A stretch of DNA of 56,154 bases from Patescibacteria group bacterium (GTDB lineage: Bacteria > Patescibacteriota > Minisyncoccia > Phycocordibacterales > WO2-35-19): NCBI GenBank assembly GCA_038056395.1, contig JBBUFS010000011.1, positions 1 to 56,154 of the forward strand. The letters are read 5' to 3'. Shown one piece after another: positions 10,496-20,286 of this stretch. Positions within the stretch are counted from its first letter, which is position 1. Each line of letters begins with the position of its first letter. The notes under the pieces are model-generated. The model was not told where the DNA came from and did not search any database. It worked only from the letters and a program-made list of their open reading frames with translations. Position numbers and translations under genes: made by a program.

Positions 10496-12853
10496 ATGTC
10501 AAAAAATGAAAGGATTACAGAAAATATGGTGCGAAAAAAATTAGAAGCTGTCGGAATAACCGTGCAAGAAGGTTTTTTGGTCGAGGAACAAAAGAGTGAA
10601 AACCCGCTTGTGAAAAAGCTTCTGGAAAGTGCTAGCAAATCAGGCAATGGTGCCGGTAAACCGGAGTTTCTGATTTCCAACCCAAACAATAAAGAATTTA
10701 TATTGATTATAGAATGCAAAGCTGATACGAAATTCCATGAATCATCAAATCGTGACCAATTCAAAGATTACGCCATTGATGGAGTTTTGCTTTATGCTAG
10801 CTATCTATCAAAAGAATTTAATGTGATTGCTGTTGGCGTAAGCGGTCAATTTGAAAATGAATTAAAAATTGATGCATTTCTACACCCCAAAGGCGCAACT
10901 GATGCATCCTCCCTAAAAGACACTTCAGAAAAACCGGTTTTGGTAAAAGATATTATTTCTTGGGAGCAATATATCAGATATGCTACCTACGATGAAAATT
11001 TAGTACAAGCACAAAAGAGTGAATTAAATAAGTTCTCTCGTGACTTACATGATTACATACGCGACTATGGAAAAATTACTGAGGCCCAGAAACCACTCTT
11101 GGTAAGCGGTATTCTGTTGGCTTTGATGGAAAAGGGTTTTAAGGTGGCCTATCCGAAATATGAAGGAGCAGAACTTGCCCAGAAAACTTTTCAAGCAGTG
11201 AAAGATATTATAGAAATGGCTAGACTTGGCGTAAACCAAGAGAGAAAGAAAAATGCTATTATCAACGCTTTTCGTTTTATCGAAGATCATCCGGAGCTAC
11301 AAAAAGTTGATAGAAAGCGAAATGAATCGCCACTTGCTCATATTGTTCGAGATATCGATCATGAAGTCAAACCTTTCACCCAAAACCATTACGATTATGA
11401 TGTAATAGGAAATTTCTATGGAGAGTTTATTCGCTATACGGGCGGGGATGCCCAAGGTCTTGGGATAGTTCTGACTCCTAAGCATATAACCGAACTTTTC
11501 GCTGATTTGGCAAAATTAAACAAGAATTCCGTGGTATTAGATACTTGTTGTGGTACTGGCGGGTTTCTTATTTCAGCAATGAAAAAAATGACCGTCGATG
11601 TAAGTGAGAATGAGAAGAAAAAAATTTTGGAAAACTCTTTGATTGGTGTTGAACAAGAGCCATCCATGTTTGCACTAGCTGTGTCAAATATGATTTTACG
11701 AGGAGATGGCAAAACTAACCTTTATCAGGGTTCGTGTTTTGATGAAGAAATTTTCAATTTAGTCAAAAATAAAGCAACTGTTGGTTTTATCAACCCACCA
11801 TATTCACAAAAAGGTGATGATTTACATGAATGGAATTTTGTTATTCAACTGCTAAACGCCTTACAAAAAAACGCGGCTGGTATTGTAATAGTGCCAATGT
11901 CACTTGCCATTGCCAAACATCCTATTCGAGAACAACTCCTAAAAGAGCATAGACTTGAAGCGGTAATGAGTATGCCGAACGACTTATTTTATCCGATAGG
12001 AGTCGTACCGTGCATTATAGTTTTTACTGCACATGTGCCACATAACAGCGACTCTCATCATGAAAGTTGGTTTGGTTATTGGAAGGATGATGGGTTTCGA
12101 AAAGACAGAATTGAAGGAAGAATTCCAACAAACTATTGGCCAGAAATTCGTACTAAATGGCTACACTCATACCGTAGACTCCAAACTCCAGGTGAAAGTG
12201 TGTGGAGAAAAGTTGGCGCTGAAGATGAGTGGAGTGCCGAAGCATATTTAGAAACAGATTATTCTAGATTGCAAAGCAAAGATTTTATATCAAATGTAAA
12301 AAAATATATTGCTTATAAACTTTTAAATTCTGACGAAGAGATTTCCTCAAAACCATTATTAAATGATTCAAATAGAGTAGTAGATGTTAGTAAGTGGCAC
12401 AGTTTTTTGATTAAAGATTTATTCGATGTATCAGGAACAAAAACAACTCAAAAAAGAAGATTGGAAGAAATAGGGGCAGGAAAATATCCGTATATAACTA
12501 CACAATCAACGAACAATGGTGTTGAGGGTTTTTATGATTTTTATACTGAAAAAGGTAATGTGATAGTTATAGATTCTGCCGTAGCTGGCTTTTCTTCTTA
12601 TCAAGGAGAAAATTTTACGGCAAGCGATCATGTTGAAAAATTAACTCCTCAATTTAAGCTAAATAAATATATGGGATTATTTTTACAGACAGTAATAAAT
12701 CTGGAGCAGTTTCGTTACTCATATGGTAAAAAGTTTAACCAAGAAAAAATTAGAAATACTGAAACCAAACTTCCGGTGGATACAAGTGGTAATCCGGATT
12801 GGAAATTTATGGAAGATTTTATAAAATCGTTACCTTATTCTAGTTCGATCTAA
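10496..12853 (+). CDS. Single-chain restriction-modification enzyme (BcgI-like Type IIB/IIG: REase, N6-adenine MTase and one TRD)
   Basis: N-terminal KPEF...IIECK nuclease motif, DTCCGTGGF and INPPY methyltransferase motifs, C-terminal S-subunit-like half (PYIT...NNGV...PDWKFMEDFIK). Confidence 0.85.
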   Translation: MSKNERITENMVRKKLEAVGITVQEGFLVEEQKSENPLVKKLLESASKSGNGAGKPEFLISNPNNKEFILIIECKADTKFHESSNRDQFKDYAIDGVLLYASYLSKEFNVIAVGVSGQFENELKIDAFLHPKGATDASSLKDTSEKPVLVKDIISWEQYIRYATYDENLVQAQKSELNKFSRDLHDYIRDYGKITEAQKPLLVSGILLALMEKGFKVAYPKYEGAELAQKTFQAVKDIIEMARLGVNQERKKNAIINAFRFIEDHPELQKVDRKRNESPLAHIVRDIDHEVKPFTQNHYDYDVIGNFYGEFIRYTGGDAQGLGIVLTPKHITELFADLAKLNKNSVVLDTCCGTGGFLISAMKKMTVDVSENEKKKILENSLIGVEQEPSMFALAVSNMILRGDGKTNLYQGSCFDEEIFNLVKNKATVGFINPPYSQKGDDLHEWNFVIQLLNALQKNAAGIVIVPMSLAIAKHPIREQLLKEHRLEAVMSMPNDLFYPIGVVPCIIVFTAHVPHNSDSHHESWFGYWKDDGFRKDRIEGRIPTNYWPEIRTKWLHSYRRLQTPGESVWRKVGAEDEWSAEAYLETDYSRLQSKDFISNVKKYIAYKLLNSDEEISSKPLLNDSNRVVDVSKWHSFLIKDLFDVSGTKTTQKRRLEEIGAGKYPYITTQSTNNGVEGFYDFYTEKGNVIVIDSAVAGFSSYQGENFTASDHVEKLTPQFKLNKYMGLFLQTVINLEQFRYSYGKKFNQEKIRNTETKLPVDTSGNPDWKFMEDFIKSLPYSSSI

Positions 12854-15264: not shown

Positions 15265-15379
15265 AATAATATTGTTTCTGCGTTAGGTCTTAAGGATAAG
15301 GCTCTTGAAACAACATTATTTTAATTTTTTAAAAAAATAACAAAACAAAAAGACTTCTAAAACAAGTCTTTTTGTTTTG
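15256..15379. terminator. Two AT-rich inverted repeats after rplK
   Basis: 23-bp arms at 15256-15278 and 15307-15329 (1 mismatch); CAAAACAAAAAGACTT/AAGTCTTTTTGTTTTG at 15341-15379. Confidence 0.55.
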
Positions 15380-15425
15380 TCAAAAATGTGTAAGATGATG
15401 GAGGAAGTTGTTTGAAAGGAGCTTT

Positions 15426-16013
15426 ATGCCGACCCTCAAAAATGTCCTGCAAGGAAATTGCCTGCAGGACAAATACATTCCTGATTTTGAGGATCTAGCG
15501 AAAATTGTCCGCCAACTCAAAGAAGGCGGCTTTAAAATCGCTATGACCCAAGGTGTCTTCGACATGTTCCATGTAGGACATGGGCGCTATCTGAGAGAAG
15601 CCAGATCTTATGGCGATGTTTTAATCGTTGGAGTTGACTCGGACGAACTGACTAGAGAAATGAAAGGTCCGAAAAGACCTTTCGACGTATTTGAAGAGAG
15701 GATAGAAATTCTCTCCATGCTTGCTTCGGTAAGCATTATCGCCCGCAGACACACAGACAAGCATAAGTATGACCTGATCAAGTTAGTTGAGCCGGATATT
15801 CTCATCATGTCCAAGACAACCAGCTCTTTTAATGATGACGATAAGAGAGAGCTGGACCAGTACTGCGGCAAAATCGAGCATTTGGAAGCTAAAGCGGCAA
15901 CGACCACTACCGCCAAAACGCTTCGCCTCATGACTGACGGAGCGAAAGAATTGGCTGAAAGAATAGAGCGAACCGTCACAGATTTCTTTCAGCAGAATGG
16001 AGAAGGCCAATGA
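15426..16013 (+). CDS. Cytidylyltransferase-like (RfaE/TagD, HxGH) nucleotidyltransferase
   Basis: TQGVFDMFHVGH, LIVGVDSD, KGPKRP and ER..IL motifs; ATG at 15426 chosen as start. Confidence 0.88.
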   Translation: MPTLKNVLQGNCLQDKYIPDFEDLAKIVRQLKEGGFKIAMTQGVFDMFHVGHGRYLREARSYGDVLIVGVDSDELTREMKGPKRPFDVFEERIEILSMLASVSIIARRHTDKHKYDLIKLVEPDILIMSKTTSSFNDDDKRELDQYCGKIEHLEAKAATTTTAKTLRLMTDGAKELAERIERTVTDFFQQNGEGQ

Positions 16014-16879
16014 CTAACCTCATCGCCTACATTCCGGCTTTGAACCAGCGCCATCTGGACTGGTTCAAGAAGCATTCCAACGGAGACCTGTATCTTATTC
16101 CACAAGAGATGGCACAGTCGCTTTTGCCGAGACTTTCTCGGAACTTGGCGGCTGTGCCGACACTGGTTCAAATCAGTTCAATTCGTAGTCTGCCGGATCC
16201 ATGGAAGGTGTGGCAAGTATTGAAGTTTGATCCAATCAACCACGAACCGTTCCTGGGTAGGCCTGCCGGTTGGGGCGAACCGTGGATTTTGCCGGACGAG
16301 GATATATCGCACGCAGTCGTTGAAAAGTATTTTACAAGTACGCGGGCGGAAGCGAAGTTTGAGAACATTCGCGCGCGTTGGGATATGACCGCAGTCAAAC
16401 GCCGGTCGCCGATAATGGCCGGAGTCGACGTGATCACTGGCCACAATTTGCGTATGGAGTTTGCTCGAAAAGAGGCCGCGAAAAGTCCGGATTGGTGGCG
16501 GCGGATAGGTGCGGCTCTGTATGTGAACGGCCATTGTATGGCGGTTGGATGCAACGACCATTACCCGACAGAATATGAGCAGGACATCAAAGGCGATCCG
16601 CGTGGAAATTTTGAAGCGGGTCAACCAGGCAAGTATCTTTCTTTCCACGCAGAGAAAACGGTTATCGCCAAGTGTGCCAATGCCGGGATTGCGACCAAAG
16701 GCGCTATTCTCTACACGACAGTATTTCCGTGCGAGGATTGTGCCCGGGCGATCGTAGTCGCTGGCATAGACCACGTGTTCTTTGAAGAAGGATATTCTAC
16801 CCTTGACGCGCAAGAAGTGCTTCGGGGCGCAGGTGTCCAAATCACACAAGTAGTAAAAAAAGACCCCGAGTCCGCTTAG
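16010..16879 (+). CDS. dCMP-deaminase-family zinc deaminase with a ~130 aa N-terminal extension
   Basis: HAE and FPCEDC zinc motifs; SPDWWRRIGA segment; ATGA overlap with the upstream gene. Confidence 0.88.
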   Translation: MTNLIAYIPALNQRHLDWFKKHSNGDLYLIPQEMAQSLLPRLSRNLAAVPTLVQISSIRSLPDPWKVWQVLKFDPINHEPFLGRPAGWGEPWILPDEDISHAVVEKYFTSTRAEAKFENIRARWDMTAVKRRSPIMAGVDVITGHNLRMEFARKEAAKSPDWWRRIGAALYVNGHCMAVGCNDHYPTEYEQDIKGDPRGNFEAGQPGKYLSFHAEKTVIAKCANAGIATKGAILYTTVFPCEDCARAIVVAGIDHVFFEEGYSTLDAQEVLRGAGVQITQVVKKDPESA

Positions 16880-16900
16880 CGCGGCCTCGGGGCAATTTTT
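16864..16900. terminator. Hairpin between convergent genes
   Basis: CCCCGAG.CCGC...GCGG.CTCGGGG followed by a T run. Confidence 0.6.
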
Positions 16901-17392
16901 TTATTTAGTTTTGTACCCAATAGCGGTAGTTATGAAAGAATCCGGATATTTTGGATTTTTAATATTTTTTCTTGAAATGCCAGAAATAATTTGAGCATGA
17001 AGATGAAAGATGGTAGCGCCTGTGTAAGTCATATCTCCAAAACGCATTACAATAGTCGCTCCCTTAATTTTTTTCTCTTTGCAAAACTTTGAAAAAAGCA
17101 GAAGTAATTCATCACCCGCTCCCAGGGCGAGTTCGGAAATTAATGAGATGTGATCTTTGTAAATAGCAAGATAATGATACTTACTTCCAATGTAAGGATG
17201 GTCATTTGCCGTTATCACCCAAAATTTACCTTTCTTTATTACCGGCGCATCATGCCATTCAGAGAGATTTTTCCAACAAAAAGGACAAATTCCAAGTTTG
17301 ATACATTTTTCCATCCTGTCTTTCTGCGACTTTACTCTCGTATGAGCAAGTTCAAACAAAAGTTTTTTACCTGACACTTTTTTAAGTTCCAT
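16901..17392 (-). CDS. HIT-superfamily nucleotide hydrolase/transferase with HxHxQ motif
   Basis: CPFC, N.HPY and GATIFHLHAQ motifs. Confidence 0.85.
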   Translation of the reverse strand: MELKKVSGKKLLFELAHTRVKSQKDRMEKCIKLGICPFCWKNLSEWHDAPVIKKGKFWVITANDHPYIGSKYHYLAIYKDHISLISELALGAGDELLLLFSKFCKEKKIKGATIVMRFGDMTYTGATIFHLHAQIISGISRKNIKNPKYPDSFITTAIGYKTK

Positions 17393-17419
17393 AATAAGTG
17401 GATTATAAACATTTTTTTA

Positions 17420-17460
17420 AAAAAAGAAAGCTGCCCGAACCTGTACAATGTAGGGGCAGC
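17420..17460 (-). terminator. Terminator-like hairpin downstream of folA
   Basis: GCTGCCC...GGGCAGC followed by TTTCTTTTTTT on the - strand. Confidence 0.55.
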
Positions 17461-17474
17461 CATAAAGAGCTTCG

Positions 17475-18050
17475 TTACCATACACGCCGGAAGGCGTAGT
17501 AGCTGGAATCGATTTGATCTTTCTTTTTTTCGGTTCCGCTTATTCCAGCACTGCAGTGCTCCTCGCCGATTTTCCTCCACTCGTTCCAGTCGATGTACGG
17601 AAAGAAGGTATCCCCATCGAATTCTTCGTGGATCATAGTCCAGTGCAGGTAGTCTGTATAGGGGAGCGCCAGAGCGTAAATCTCCGCGCCGCCGATTATC
17701 CACACGTTCTCCGATTTGGCGATCATCACTGCCTCTTCGAGAGAATGAGCCATGGCCACTTCAGTATTCGGACCCAGTTTTGTCCGGTCAAATTCCGGCC
17801 GAAAGTTTGTGTCATGAGTCAGGATGATGTTCTGCCGATTTTTCAAGGGCTTGAAACTGTTCGAGAGAGAATCCCATGTTTTTCTACCCGGAATTACAGA
17901 GTGGTACGAGGTTAACCTCACGAACCGGCTCATGTCGGAGGGAACTAATCCTTGCCATCCTGGCAAGTCGTTACCCTTACCGATTACACGTCTGTCGTCC
18001 TCTCTTTCAGAGGAGGCGAAGGCAATCTTGAGTATCTTTCTGTTCAGCAT
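17475..18050 (-). CDS. folA: Dihydrofolate reductase
   Basis: VIG..N.LP.W...D..RF, GRKTWDSL, PL.NR.NIIL, IIGGAEIY and GDTFFP motifs. Confidence 0.93.
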   Translation of the reverse strand: MLNRKILKIAFASSEREDDRRVIGKGNDLPGWQGLVPSDMSRFVRLTSYHSVIPGRKTWDSLSNSFKPLKNRQNIILTHDTNFRPEFDRTKLGPNTEVAMAHSLEEAVMIAKSENVWIIGGAEIYALALPYTDYLHWTMIHEEFDGDTFFPYIDWNEWRKIGEEHCSAGISGTEKKKDQIDSSYYAFRRVW

Positions 18051-18061
18051 GTCTTCTCCTT

Positions 18062-19006
18062 TTAGCGTGTTGTCGGGATTTTCATCCCCGGATGGGACTC
18101 ATAATCCCAAAGTTCGAAGTGGTCAGCCGTGAAATCAAAGATGTTATCCACCTTCTGGCCCTCTTCGGTTAGTATGAGACGGGGGAATGGATAAGGCTTT
18201 CTTGTCAGAAGCTCATCCACCCCTTCGATTTGATCCTCGTAAATCTGAGCGTCGTTTATTTTGAGGATAAACTTGTAAGGTTCGTATCCGCAAATGTGAG
18301 CAAGGTAGATAACGAGAGCGGCGTATTGGATGATGTTGGAAACGCCACCCACAGCCACATCTTGCGATCTTTGTACCATGGTCAATACTAGAAGTTTGCC
18401 ATTAATCACGGTGCACTGAATCGTGGTGCCATGACAGGGCGCGACTGCCACTTGGCGCTTGTGCTTCGAGTGTTGCATGGCAAGAGGCGGAATCCAGGTG
18501 GTAATCACATGGCCATTCAGAGCCGGTCCGTCTTTTAATGATTGAACCAGATTCTCTACTTGATTGAACGGCTTGTATTCCCACTGGCCGGTTTTCTCGT
18601 TCAATTCAAAGTGTGGGTAAATGTTTAAAGCCGGTCCGTAAGAACCAGGCCCTAAATCTCCCGGTGGCAAGTTGAAGTAGGAGCATTGCTCATCGGTAAC
18701 CCACTGTGCCCACCAATCGCAACCAGCCTCCACCATTTCCTGTTGAGTGTGAATCCCTTTCATAAACTGCAGAAGTTCAGCGACAGGCTTTTTCCAGAAG
18801 GGAATCCTTCTCTCAGTGCATATAGGAAACCCATTGCGCAGGTTGTAAATCAAATTCGGGGTTTCCAAATTTGTCCAACGACCGTACTTTTGGTGGGGAT
18901 GCTTTTGCAAAAACGTTTCAGGCGAATTACGGATAAATCGCAACAAATCGGAATATTGCGTATCTGAAGTCCGTTCCAGATACGGCTTATATGGTATTGT
19001 TGTCAT
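18062..19006 (-). CDS. thyA: Thymidylate synthase ThyA (divergent)
   Basis: GFP..T, GDLGP, APCH catalytic Cys, QRS.D...G..N and Y..HP..K motifs; start placed at MTTIPY. Confidence 0.9.
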   Translation of the reverse strand: MTTIPYKPYLERTSDTQYSDLLRFIRNSPETFLQKHPHQKYGRWTNLETPNLIYNLRNGFPICTERRIPFWKKPVAELLQFMKGIHTQQEMVEAGCDWWAQWVTDEQCSYFNLPPGDLGPGSYGPALNIYPHFELNEKTGQWEYKPFNQVENLVQSLKDGPALNGHVITTWIPPLAMQHSKHKRQVAVAPCHGTTIQCTVINGKLLVLTMVQRSQDVAVGGVSNIIQYAALVIYLAHICGYEPYKFILKINDAQIYEDQIEGVDELLTRKPYPFPRLILTEEGQKVDNIFDFTADHFELWDYESHPGMKIPTTR

Positions 19007-19077
19007 GTCAAAACAACTCCTGTCCCATATTCTCCACAAAAATAGAAAAGAAGCAAATTTGTGGTATAGTGCAGGCA

Positions 19078-20286
19078 ATGAAAGATCCACAAATCAAAAA
19101 ATTGATAGAGCAAGAGAAGAAGAGGCAAAAAAAGGTCATAAACCTGATTGCCTCGGAAAATTATGCATCCAAGGATGTTTTGGCGGCGTTAGGGTCGGAG
19201 CTGACTAATAAATACGCCGAAGGCTATGCGGGAAAAAGATATTATGGGGGCAATGAAATAGTTGATAAAATTGAAAATTTATGCAAAGAGCGCGCTTTGA
19301 AATTATTCGGACTCTCGCCCCAAAAATGGCATGTCAATGTTCAGCCATTATCGGGTTCTCCGGCGAATCTGGCAGTTTATTTGGCACTCTTGGGCGGAGC
19401 CGACTTCACTAAAAATCACATTGAGCCGAAGAAAATAATGGGTATGTCTTTAGACCATGGCGGCCATTTGACTCACGGGCACAAAGTTTCAGCTAGCGGA
19501 AAATTCTGGACACAGATTTCCTACGGAGTAGATAAAAAAACGGAGCAGCTTGATTACGATGAAATAAAAAGAATAGCTTTAAGAGAAAAGCCGGATATAA
19601 TCGTTGCCGGATATACCGCTTACTCCCGTAAAATAGATTGGAAAAAATTCAAAATAATAGCCGACGTCTGCGGCGCATATTTGATGGCAGATATTTCCCA
19701 CATCGCGGGTCTAGTGGCTGCCGGAGAACACCTTTCGCCTTTTCTATATTGCGATGTGGTAACCTCGACTACCCACAAAACATTGCGCGGCCCTCGGGCG
19801 GCTTTGATTTTTTCCAAAATAGATTCAAGGGAAATTTACAAAAAAATAGACAAAGCGGTTTTCCCGGGATTACAAGGCGGGCCGCATCTCAATAATATCG
19901 CTTCGGTCGCCATAGCTCTAGCGGAAGCGAACCAGCCGTCCTTTAAAAAATATATCAAACAAGTTGTCAGAAACGCCAAAGCCATGTCGGAAGAGTTTAA
20001 AAAACTTGGCTGGCGGGTGATTTCAGGCGGCACAGATACTCATCTGTTTTTGCTTGATACTATGTCGCGGGGGATTTCAGGCAAACAGGCCAGCGAACTG
20101 CTTGAGCAAAATGGTATTATTGTGAATAAGAATGCAATCCCGTTTGATTCCCGCCCGCCCATGGACCCTTCCGGCATCCGTATTGGCGCTCCGGCTGAAA
20201 CTACTCGCGGCAGAAAAGAAAAAGATTTCATCCGAATTGCCAGAAAAATAGACGGGATTTTAAGGGCAGAAGTTGGTAATATTTAA
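19078..20286 (+). CDS. glyA: Serine hydroxymethyltransferase
   Basis: LIASEN, NKYAEGY...RYYGG, GGHLTHG and TTHKTLRGPR motifs. Confidence 0.97.
   Translation: MKDPQIKKLIEQEKKRQKKVINLIASENYASKDVLAALGSELTNKYAEGYAGKRYYGGNEIVDKIENLCKERALKLFGLSPQKWHVNVQPLSGSPANLAVYLALLGGADFTKNHIEPKKIMGMSLDHGGHLTHGHKVSASGKFWTQISYGVDKKTEQLDYDEIKRIALREKPDIIVAGYTAYSRKIDWKKFKIIADVCGAYLMADISHIAGLVAAGEHLSPFLYCDVVTSTTHKTLRGPRAALIFSKIDSREIYKKIDKAVFPGLQGGPHLNNIASVAIALAEANQPSFKKYIKQVVRNAKAMSEEFKKLGWRVISGGTDTHLFLLDTMSRGISGKQASELLEQNGIIVNKNAIPFDSRPPMDPSGIRIGAPAETTRGRKEKDFIRIARKIDGILRAEVGNI

Follow-up and report, generated by a model that had tools for sequence, protein, structure and literature searches.

The locus examined here raises a simple question: why should a nucleotidyltransferase (NT) and a protein of the HIT superfamily be encoded among the genes for the synthesis of thymidylate (dTMP), a step that ranks among the best-studied and most drug-targeted in metabolism? 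It occupies positions 15,426 to 20,286 of a 56,154-nucleotide stretch of DNA, referred to below as the window, which spans positions 1 to 56,154 of the forward strand of contig JBBUFS010000011.1 (assembly GCA_038056395.1, Patescibacteria group bacterium). The source genome, designated G000, comprises 565 kb in 15 contigs and has a marker completeness of 66%. Our comparisons indicate that NT, an associated two-domain deaminase, the HIT protein, dihydrofolate reductase (DHFR) and a special form of thymidylate synthase (ThyA) very probably constitute one portable functional cassette for thymidylate synthesis, conserved across the Patescibacteria, also present in some Solirubrobacterales and often joined by an adjacent gene for serine hydroxymethyltransferase (SHMT). 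Within this cassette, the deaminase would turn a deoxycytidine nucleotide into its uracil form, ThyA would methylate it, and DHFR and SHMT would recycle the folate. For NT and the HIT protein, we tentatively favor a role in attaching and removing a handle on the nucleotide, a reading that is weighed below against its alternatives.

The list of open reading frames (ORFs) and the family scans confirm the gene layout proposed by an earlier reading of the DNA that used its letters alone (the sequence-only reading). The features of the locus are the following:

15426-16013, plus strand: NT, an HxGH cytidylyltransferase-like protein of 195 residues (PF01467, 46.4 bits; HVGH motif)
16010-16879, plus strand: two-domain deaminase protein of 289 residues (PF00383 on residues 148-258 only)
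16010-16423, plus strand: N-terminal domain of the deaminase, about 138 residues, with a probable nucleotidyltransferase-like fold (fold search of a domain model) and the motif NQRH
16451-16879, plus strand: C-terminal dCMP-type zinc domain of the deaminase (PF00383, 50.5 bits; cut-off 25)
16864-16900, no strand assigned: terminator-like hairpin CCCCGAG...CTCGGGG and T-run, separating the deaminase gene from the HIT gene that converges on it (read from the sequence)
16901-17392, minus strand: HIT-superfamily protein of 163 residues with CPFC...H and HLHAQ motifs, AT-rich (alignment and profile)
17413-17462, minus strand: terminator-like hairpin (17431-17462) with a T-run, past the end of folA and ahead of the HIT gene (read from the sequence)
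17475-18050, minus strand: folA, DHFR of 191 residues (PF00186, 128.2 bits, over the cut-off)
18062-19006, minus strand: thyA, distinct cassette subfamily (PF00303, 171.5 bits; start set by alignment)
19078-20286, plus strand: glyA, SHMT (PF00464, 524.2 bits, over the cut-off)

The TGA stop codon of the NT gene (16011-16013) shares bases with the ATG start codon of the deaminase gene (16010-16012), so that the two genes overlap by the sequence ATGA. The deaminase gene, on the plus strand, converges on the HIT gene, on the minus strand, and glyA is divergent from thyA.

Recurrence of the cassette in Patescibacteria and Solirubrobacterales

The same genes recur together in distant genomes. A sample of relatives comprised 41 genomes, G000 included, with the source labels Zambryskibacteria, Parcubacteria, Minisyncoccia and Paceibacterota. 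Twelve of them, G000 among them, encode a full-length two-domain deaminase, and at all 11 loci other than that of the window the genes for NT, the deaminase, the HIT protein and ThyA are adjacent, accompanied by DHFR in 10 cases and SHMT in 6, with deaminase identities as low as 30% and a variable position of the DHFR gene. A profile of the deaminase N-terminal domain, applied to an even set of 301 genomes from the phylum, identified 11 genomes, and NT, deaminase, HIT, DHFR and ThyA occur together at each of the 10 loci besides the window's own. Adjacency of NT, deaminase, HIT and ThyA thereby extends to all 21 related loci (11 from relatives and 10 from across the phylum). When the same 301 genomes were searched with an NT profile, the 11 top matches (136-306 bits) fell into the same 11 genomes, each of them beside the deaminase gene.

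A wider sample was obtained by scanning species genomes with a peptide pattern from the N-terminal domain; the best 80 of 102 relatives were examined, and these loci probably share some genomes with the other samples, so that the counts overlap. At all 80 of these further loci, the NT gene immediately precedes the deaminase gene; 76 of them contain HIT, 75 ThyA, 62 DHFR and 33 SHMT, and the four loci without HIT are all at most 3.8 kb long. Gene order within the cassette is shuffled between loci, yet its membership is kept. The sequence-only reading had staked its proposal on NT and HIT being conserved neighbors elsewhere, and these counts, together with fusions of HIT to DHFR or ThyA, bear out that conservation. 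DHFR and HIT form a single ORF at 5 of the 10 phylum-sample loci, and DHFR-ThyA fusions are found at 2 of the 80 further loci. Moreover, a profile of the HIT family detects 1156 representatives at E <= 0.001, and among the best 150 of them, 35 measure 276-340 residues and carry HIT in their C-terminal half. All seven long representatives tested are DHFR-HIT fusions, while the representative P0231 is a HIT-ThyA fusion. With recurrence at 11/11, 10/10 and 80/80 loci, the clustering of these genes is not a matter of chance. Clustering of all ORFs from 22 loci revealed no additional universal member.

Four loci labeled Solirubrobacterales or Solirubrobacteraceae (Actinomycetota) carry all five genes, and the NusG-L11 context that precedes many patescibacterial cassettes is absent from them. 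Two of the four show the order ThyA-DHFR-HIT-NT-deaminase on a single strand, and two lie on chromosomes of 3.2 and 3.4 Mb. There is no sign of a phage origin of the cassette: in a search of a phage collection with the deaminase, 1551 records matched, all via the C-terminal domain only, and none of them covers 80% of the query. NT, HIT and a ThyA with a rebuilt pocket thus emerge as obligatory pathway partners across a very large and mostly uncultured bacterial radiation as well as in free-living Solirubrobacterales.

Parts of this gene set have been described before. Previous studies report that genomes of the candidate phyla radiation (CPR) commonly contain folA and glyA (PMC11974145) and that thyA has been transferred into Patescibacteria (PMC12455944); the passages considered from these two papers do not mention NT, the two-domain deaminase, HIT or the fusions. 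A full-text literature search, with supplementary files outside its scope, likewise returned no description of the cassette, its NT and HIT partners or DHFR-HIT and HIT-ThyA fusions. Compared with the known thymidylate gene cluster, the cassette is set apart by three uncharacterized partners that are obligatory and by a ThyA subfamily of its own.

Features of the cassette proteins

The two halves of the deaminase differ in how readily they can be classified. For the C-terminal domain, the top Foldseek match is the dCMP deaminase of phage T4 (1vq2, 2.6e-11), and a profile of the family retrieves dCMP deaminases as top PDB matches (4p9c, 3.1e-21), including those of S-TIM5, T4, S. mutans, human and PBCV-1. 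H213, E215, C241 and C244, which belong to the HAE and PCxxC motifs, are invariant among orthologs. With its 289 residues, the protein departs from the single-domain type of about 150 residues and reaches 47.7 bits with the ComEB profile TIGR02571 (cut-off 219.45). Its best NCBIfam match, NF041025 (anti-phage dCTP deaminase), scores 72.6 bits against a cut-off of 400 and covers residues 212-274 only. The two-domain proteins of this latter family are alike in that a nucleotide-binding N-terminal domain precedes a dCMP-type deaminase. However, their N-terminal domain is kinase-like, unlike the HxGH-like fold of the cassette deaminase, and the cassette is set among housekeeping thymidylate genes rather than in a defense context.

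For residues 1-145 of the deaminase, Pfam returned no family. The N-terminal domain was folded alone (pLDDT 76), and in an exhaustive VIA-align search with the resulting model, ranks 1-16 (Z 9.0 to 6.9) are occupied by cytidylyltransferase-type (HxGH) transferases, except for rank 1 (3do8, Z 9.0), whose title reads protein of unknown function. The matches include 3glv (Z 8.8), TagD (2b7l, 8.3), the cytidylyltransferase domain of Fom1 (8.1), NMNAT (7.8) and HldC (7.4). At the HxGH position, 64 of 80 orthologs have HxGY and 11 have NxxH/Y, with NQRH in the window. The motifs PDED and RWD are nearly invariant among orthologs, indicating that the domain is under selection, probably for nucleotide binding.

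NT itself is closest to enzymes acting on sugar phosphates. Its best NCBIfam match is rfaE_dom_II (TIGR02199; 95.3 bits, below the equivalog cut-off of 181.5), and its best PDB sequence match is HldC (5x9q, 1.1e-13). HxGH is kept in 78 of 80 orthologs, which also carry the motifs KGPxRP and TTTSAKxRRL. While NT thus has the HxGH core in common with RfaE domain II and HldC, it differs from them in falling far under the TIGR02199 cut-off, in the absence of a fused kinase domain from the window NT, and in its genomic setting, since the GmhA-type SIS_2 family reaches at most 18.5 bits (cut-off 27) in the window's genome, which is 66% complete. A search for long NT-family proteins gave five matches at E <= 1e-10; three of them, with a sugar-kinase domain, are HldE-type, and none is fused to a cassette partner.

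The HIT protein of the window, taken alone, gives no PF01230 match and only a DcpS_C match of 17.9 bits (cut-off 24). A profile of 12 orthologs, on the other hand, places HIT proteins first among PDB entries (4zgl, 1.3e-05), and PF01230 is detected at E <= 0.1 in 11 of the 12 family members (best 7.4e-07). The family has a CPFC...H motif, and H130 and H132 are invariant in it. Across 76 cassette HIT proteins, the histidine motif reads HxHxH in 46 and HxHxQ in 27, with HLHAQ of the window among the latter; the HxHxQ form presumably corresponds to that of the transferase/phosphorylase branch (GalT). Many loci additionally contain a second, divergent HIT-like paralog of about 200 residues that has no Pfam match and often lies between the HIT and deaminase genes (L019:7343-7954, L021:7332-7946, L023:2997-3587 and many further loci), and at least two HIT matches occur in 24 of the 80 further loci.

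The cassette ThyA forms a distinct subfamily. The window protein is well above the PF00303 cut-off (171.5 vs 24.3), passes TIGR03284 marginally (111.6 vs 108.35) and stays far under the NF0024xx equivalog cut-offs. We aligned 75 cassette ThyAs, the window's included, with E. coli ThyA, whose numbering is used here. C146, E58, D169 and Y94 are kept in all 75, H147, S167 and N177 in 74 and R166 in 73 proteins. By contrast, R21 is found in none of them (Gln in 41) and R127 in one (Thr in 70), and K48 is replaced by Arg in all 75; R126 is present in 56, with Asn in its place in the window's subgroup. At the four positions of the dUMP-phosphate clamp (R21, R126, R127 and R166), the window ThyA therefore has H, N, G and R, while the catalytic residues Cys146-His147, Glu58, Asp169 and Tyr94 and the uracil-specifying Asn177 are all in place. 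The loss of two clamp arginines is specific to the cassette, because the four-arginine clamp is intact in 7 of 8 high-scoring canonical ThyAs of the same phylum and because, among intermediate-scoring ThyA-like proteins outside the cassette, of which 8 of 10 have a cytosine-type Asp177, 7 of those 8 keep R21. As judged from these alignments, the change shows a remodeled pocket, though not necessarily a new substrate. In the window's genome (66% complete), we found no ThyX match and a single PF00303 match, so that the cassette ThyA presumably supplies dTMP. Together with the linkage or fusion to DHFR, this indirectly supports the prediction that it converts dUMP and methylene-tetrahydrofolate to dTMP and dihydrofolate.

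Possible roles of NT and the HIT protein

In the classical cycle of Gram-positives, eukaryotes and phage T4 (cd-td-frd), dTMP is made by a dCMP deaminase, ThyA, DHFR and SHMT. The cassette resembles it in these four families, the logic of their clustering and the catalytic residues, but differs in the obligatory addition of NT and HIT, in the NT-like deaminase domain and in a ThyA without R21 and R127 (and, in the window, R126). The bifunctional DHFR-TS enzymes of protozoa and plants, in which substrates are channeled, likewise fuse pathway members, as do the two DHFR-ThyA fusions in the wider sample; in the cassette, however, the common fusion partner of DHFR is HIT, and one fusion joins HIT to ThyA. 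The Dcd-Dut route of Gram-negatives and actinobacteria (dCTP to dUTP to dUMP) serves the same overall purpose, namely to provide ThyA with dUMP, and several cassette genomes are without matches to Dut and Dcd, but its enzymes belong to unrelated families, and dut is found inside some cassettes.

The reading we favor, which is quite possible although still short of probable, holds that NT and HIT load and unload a pyrophosphate-linked nucleotidyl handle on the deoxycytidine nucleotide, such that deamination and probably also methylation take place on the conjugate before HIT frees the monophosphate. NT would join the deoxycytidine nucleotide to its partner via a pyrophosphate bond, either from a nucleoside triphosphate and dCMP to give a dinucleoside diphosphate, in analogy to NMN and FMN adenylyltransferases, or, equally possible, from dCTP and X-phosphate to give dCDP-X. 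The N-terminal domain of the deaminase would grip the non-pyrimidine handle while the C-terminal domain turns cytosine into uracil. ThyA, having lost two of four arginines, could accept the conjugate or take dUMP directly from HIT, which would release the free monophosphate just before or just after methylation, leaving the product for use by Tmk. HIT relatives cleave NMP-X and dinucleoside polyphosphates, and NMNAT, the archaeal FMN adenylyltransferase RibL and PPAT have their counterparts in HIT hydrolases of such compounds (Fhit, HINT), a pairing that serves as an analogy only. These mononucleotide adenylyltransferases have the HxGH fold in common with NT and, probably, the deaminase N-terminal domain, but NT is closest to RfaE-II and HldC rather than to NMNAT.

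We favor this handle because gene overlap and an apparently shared fold link NT to the deaminase, because fusions link HIT to DHFR and ThyA, and because the ThyA pocket is remodeled; the coupling of the cassette genes follows the order of the pathway. The sequence-only reading had proposed that the extra enzymes load and unload a carrier, and part of this idea stands: the NT-like deaminase domain, the arginine loss in ThyA and a variant cluster with kinase and Nudix genes (described below) speak for it, whereas free dTMP appears as the end product, and in some genomes free dUMP from Dut can enter.

Several observations weigh against the handle. In G063 the dut gene immediately precedes thyA, in G123 it adjoins the cassette, and in G003 it is found between the DHFR and ArgRS genes; tmk adjoins thyA in G088 and G113 and lies 5 kb from the cassette in G123. 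With dut and tmk inside or beside cassettes, at least some of the genomes with a cassette therefore use dUMP and dTMP in free form, and because tmk adjoins thyA in G088 and G113, free dTMP is the product that leaves the cassette. The cassette ThyA retains R166, S167 and usually R126, and the lost arginines could be compensated by a basic insertion, 7-9 residues long, that precedes the PCH strand. The catalytic domain of the deaminase has an ordinary dCMP-deaminase fold. Its N-terminal domain gives nothing at E <= 0.001 in a Foldseek search of the model against the PDB, the match to the HxGH fold (Z 9) is moderate, and its hhalign comparison with NT is weak (E 0.11), yet it aligns the domain's motif onto the HxGH of NT, a register that is suggestive of kinship. 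Within the window, a terminator-like hairpin parts HIT from folA. Finally, the NT of one close relative (L016:7352-8005, genome G004; 38% identity to the window NT) has a degenerate HxGH motif (LSDAH), with the other cassette genes intact.

The distribution of other nucleotide enzymes speaks partly against and partly for the handle. The sequence-only reading had predicted an anti-correlation with dut and dcd, which is not seen in the phylum: 5 of the 11 cassette genomes have a dUTPase (Dut), compared with 189 of the 301 genomes overall. In favor of the handle, the window's genome and four of the five close relatives searched gave no dUTPase match. In G340, the Solirubrobacterales genome of locus L094, which consists of a single 3.2 Mb chromosome with the five-gene operon, neither dUTPase (PF00692) nor DCD (PF22769) gave a match, which likewise counts for the handle and would not usually be expected of a free-living actinobacterium. 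In G341 there is no dUTPase and DCD-like matches are weak, whereas G342 has a Dut. Tmk (PF02223) is over the cut-off in 220 of the 301 phylum genomes and in one of the five relatives, whereas the window's genome gave no match at that level. Strong matches (E 2.0e-30 or better) occur in 5 of the 11 cassette genomes, while G070, G109, G027 and G029 have weak Tmk-like matches that may represent divergent kinases. An anti-correlation of the cassette with Tmk, considered on the basis of these counts (5/11 vs 220/301), is not supported. 

As the main alternative to the handle, the pathway may run on free nucleotides, with the deaminase acting on dCMP or dCTP and ThyA on dUMP, HIT replacing Dut as a dUTP/dCTP pyrophosphatase, and NT and the N-terminal domain serving as a sensor or regulator that, for instance, binds dCTP and dTTP allosterically or makes a small effector. 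We regard this as a possibility of substance, albeit a somewhat doubtful one. It accords with the typical dCMP-deaminase fold and the partial top match to a dCTP-deaminase family, with HIT-DHFR and HIT-ThyA fusions as expected of an enzyme that passes dUMP to ThyA, with the missing dUTPase matches in the window's genome, four of its five relatives, 6 of the 11 cassette genomes and (together with Dcd) G340, and with the free monophosphates implied by tmk and dut within some cassettes; the window N-terminal domain, lacking the first histidine of the motif (NQRH), also suits binding rather than catalysis. However, NT would be left without a catalytic role, although HxGH is so widely kept and NT is never missing, HIT coexists with Dut in G003, G063, G109, G123 and G266, and the loss of R21 and R127 specific to cassette ThyAs would have no explanation. 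It is improbable, in turn, that the cassette bypasses Tmk, with NT adenylylating dTMP and HIT generating dTDP or dTTP by phosphorolysis or pyrophosphorolysis. The scarcity of Tmk matches in the window's genome, its relatives and the cassette genomes would fit, as would the HxHxQ motif, presumably the GalT-type form; NT, on the other hand, is coupled to the deaminase, which catalyzes the first step, and not to ThyA, the cassette coexists with Tmk in G088, G113 and G123, and the weakly matching genomes may harbor divergent kinases. 

Even less likely is the notion that NT and HIT owe their place among the thymidylate genes to nothing more than an old common operon while doing unrelated housekeeping in CDP-alcohol, heptose or cofactor nucleotide metabolism. 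Although the closest characterized relatives of NT are sugar-phosphate and alcohol-phosphate nucleotidyltransferases and the NusG-L11 ... ArgRS context is conserved in many Patescibacteria, the shuffled order with constant membership, the Solirubrobacterales cassettes without NusG-L11, the DHFR-HIT and HIT-ThyA fusions, the NT-like domain fused into the deaminase, the restriction of NT orthologs in the 301-genome sample to positions next to the deaminase and the lack of a GmhA match over the cut-off all argue otherwise. We consider it very unlikely, finally, that the cassette makes a hypermodified or hydroxymethylated nucleotide instead of dTMP, an alternative already raised by the sequence-only reading. 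Such a product might be suspected from the divergence of ThyA, which barely passes TIGR03284, and from the extra nucleotide enzymes alongside, but Asn177 is kept in all but one of the 75 cassette ThyAs, Asp177 marks a separate group in the phylum, no ThyX or second ThyA was found in the window's genome, and tmk adjoins thyA in two genomes. In addition, the linkage and fusion to DHFR imply that dihydrofolate is made, which is the established TS chemistry of reductive methylation.

Returning to the handle, a bolder form of this reading, which we think rather unlikely, would have C5-methylation proceed on the tagged substrate as well, in a ThyA pocket remodeled for this purpose, with HIT, fused to DHFR or ThyA, freeing dTMP. 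No pool of free dUMP or dUTP would ever form, and neither Dut nor Dcd would be needed; this would amount to a third dTMP route, next to the Dcd-Dut and dCMP-deaminase routes, in CPR bacteria and some Actinomycetota. If NT and HIT do load and unload a carrier, the cassette would represent a novel mode of thymidylate synthesis that also keeps uracil out of DNA, since dUMP and dUTP would not accumulate. If they instead provide a Dut substitute and a regulator, they would still close gaps that minimal genomes show in their nucleotide metabolism. In the window's order, where Dut and Tmk are mostly not found, ribonucleotide reductase (PF02867, PF13597) was not found in any of the four genomes searched (G000, G003, G011 and G027; three of them 100% complete), and these bacteria may depend wholly on salvaged deoxyribonucleotides. 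A tie between the cassette and the loss of ribonucleotide reductase is ruled out, as PF02867 is present in G070, G340 and all nine other phylum-sample cassette genomes (with a weak match only in G123). With five genes and soluble enzyme families throughout, the cassette is open to ordinary biochemistry.

Variant clusters and surroundings of the locus

Weaker NT-like genes (89-130 bits) are found in 30 more of the 301 phylum genomes. In G091, G116 and G162, they stand at the head of a variant cluster that comprises NT, HIT, a deaminase with a different N-terminal extension and a ThyA-like protein of about 500 residues with MtrA-like, TS and pterin-binding DUF4346 (PterinBD-DUF4346) domains. In G091, an APH-type kinase gene overlaps the start of the NT gene and the HIT gene overlaps its end, followed by a Nudix gene; kinase, NT, HIT and Nudix are four families that make or break phosphate or pyrophosphate links. 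By coordinate comparison, an NT-like gene also lies at most about 6 kb from the long ThyA-like gene in G144, G282, G252, G237, G325 and G182. The long ThyA-like proteins (L040:9441-10931 in G091) occur in about 25 genomes, in several of which NT-like, HIT, Nudix and deaminase genes adjoin; no DHFR gene was seen in the locus. G156 presents another combination, with NT, a short deaminase, a canonical ThyA, DHFR and SHMT, and no HIT gene seen in that locus. The Asp177 ThyA-like proteins outside the cassette (L131-L138, from G060, G253, G187, G281, G262, G066, G044 and G130) adjoin DHFR-like, dUTPase-like (about 220-240 residues) or deaminase-like genes and, going by this residue, could be dCMP methylases or hydroxymethylases.

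In the window, the cassette is flanked by genes for NusG, L11, a DEDD exonuclease, ArgRS and ribosomal proteins. Two reservations of the sequence-only reading about the HIT gene proved correct. A terminator-like hairpin with a T-run on the minus strand indeed separates it from folA (17431-17462), and its GC content of 0.36 is lower than that of the neighboring genes (0.45-0.54). A recent foreign origin of the HIT gene, as its low GC content might suggest, was ruled out: its identity to the orthologs of close relatives is 64-70%, compared with 61-67% for ThyA. The hairpin that separates the deaminase gene from the HIT gene (16864-16900) was seen by direct reading and is not listed by a consensus scan of the window. 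The spacer between the L11 and NT genes contains a long, AT-rich inverted repeat (15338-15382), which has a stem of 19 bp and a T-run behind it and is probably the terminator of rplK. At 55 of the 80 further loci, the cassette comes after NusG-L11, a place in which one would usually expect rplA. Further upstream, an ORF of 785 residues (10496-12853) has, judging from its sequence, the look of a type I restriction-modification methylase to which a specificity-like part is fused at the C-terminal end.

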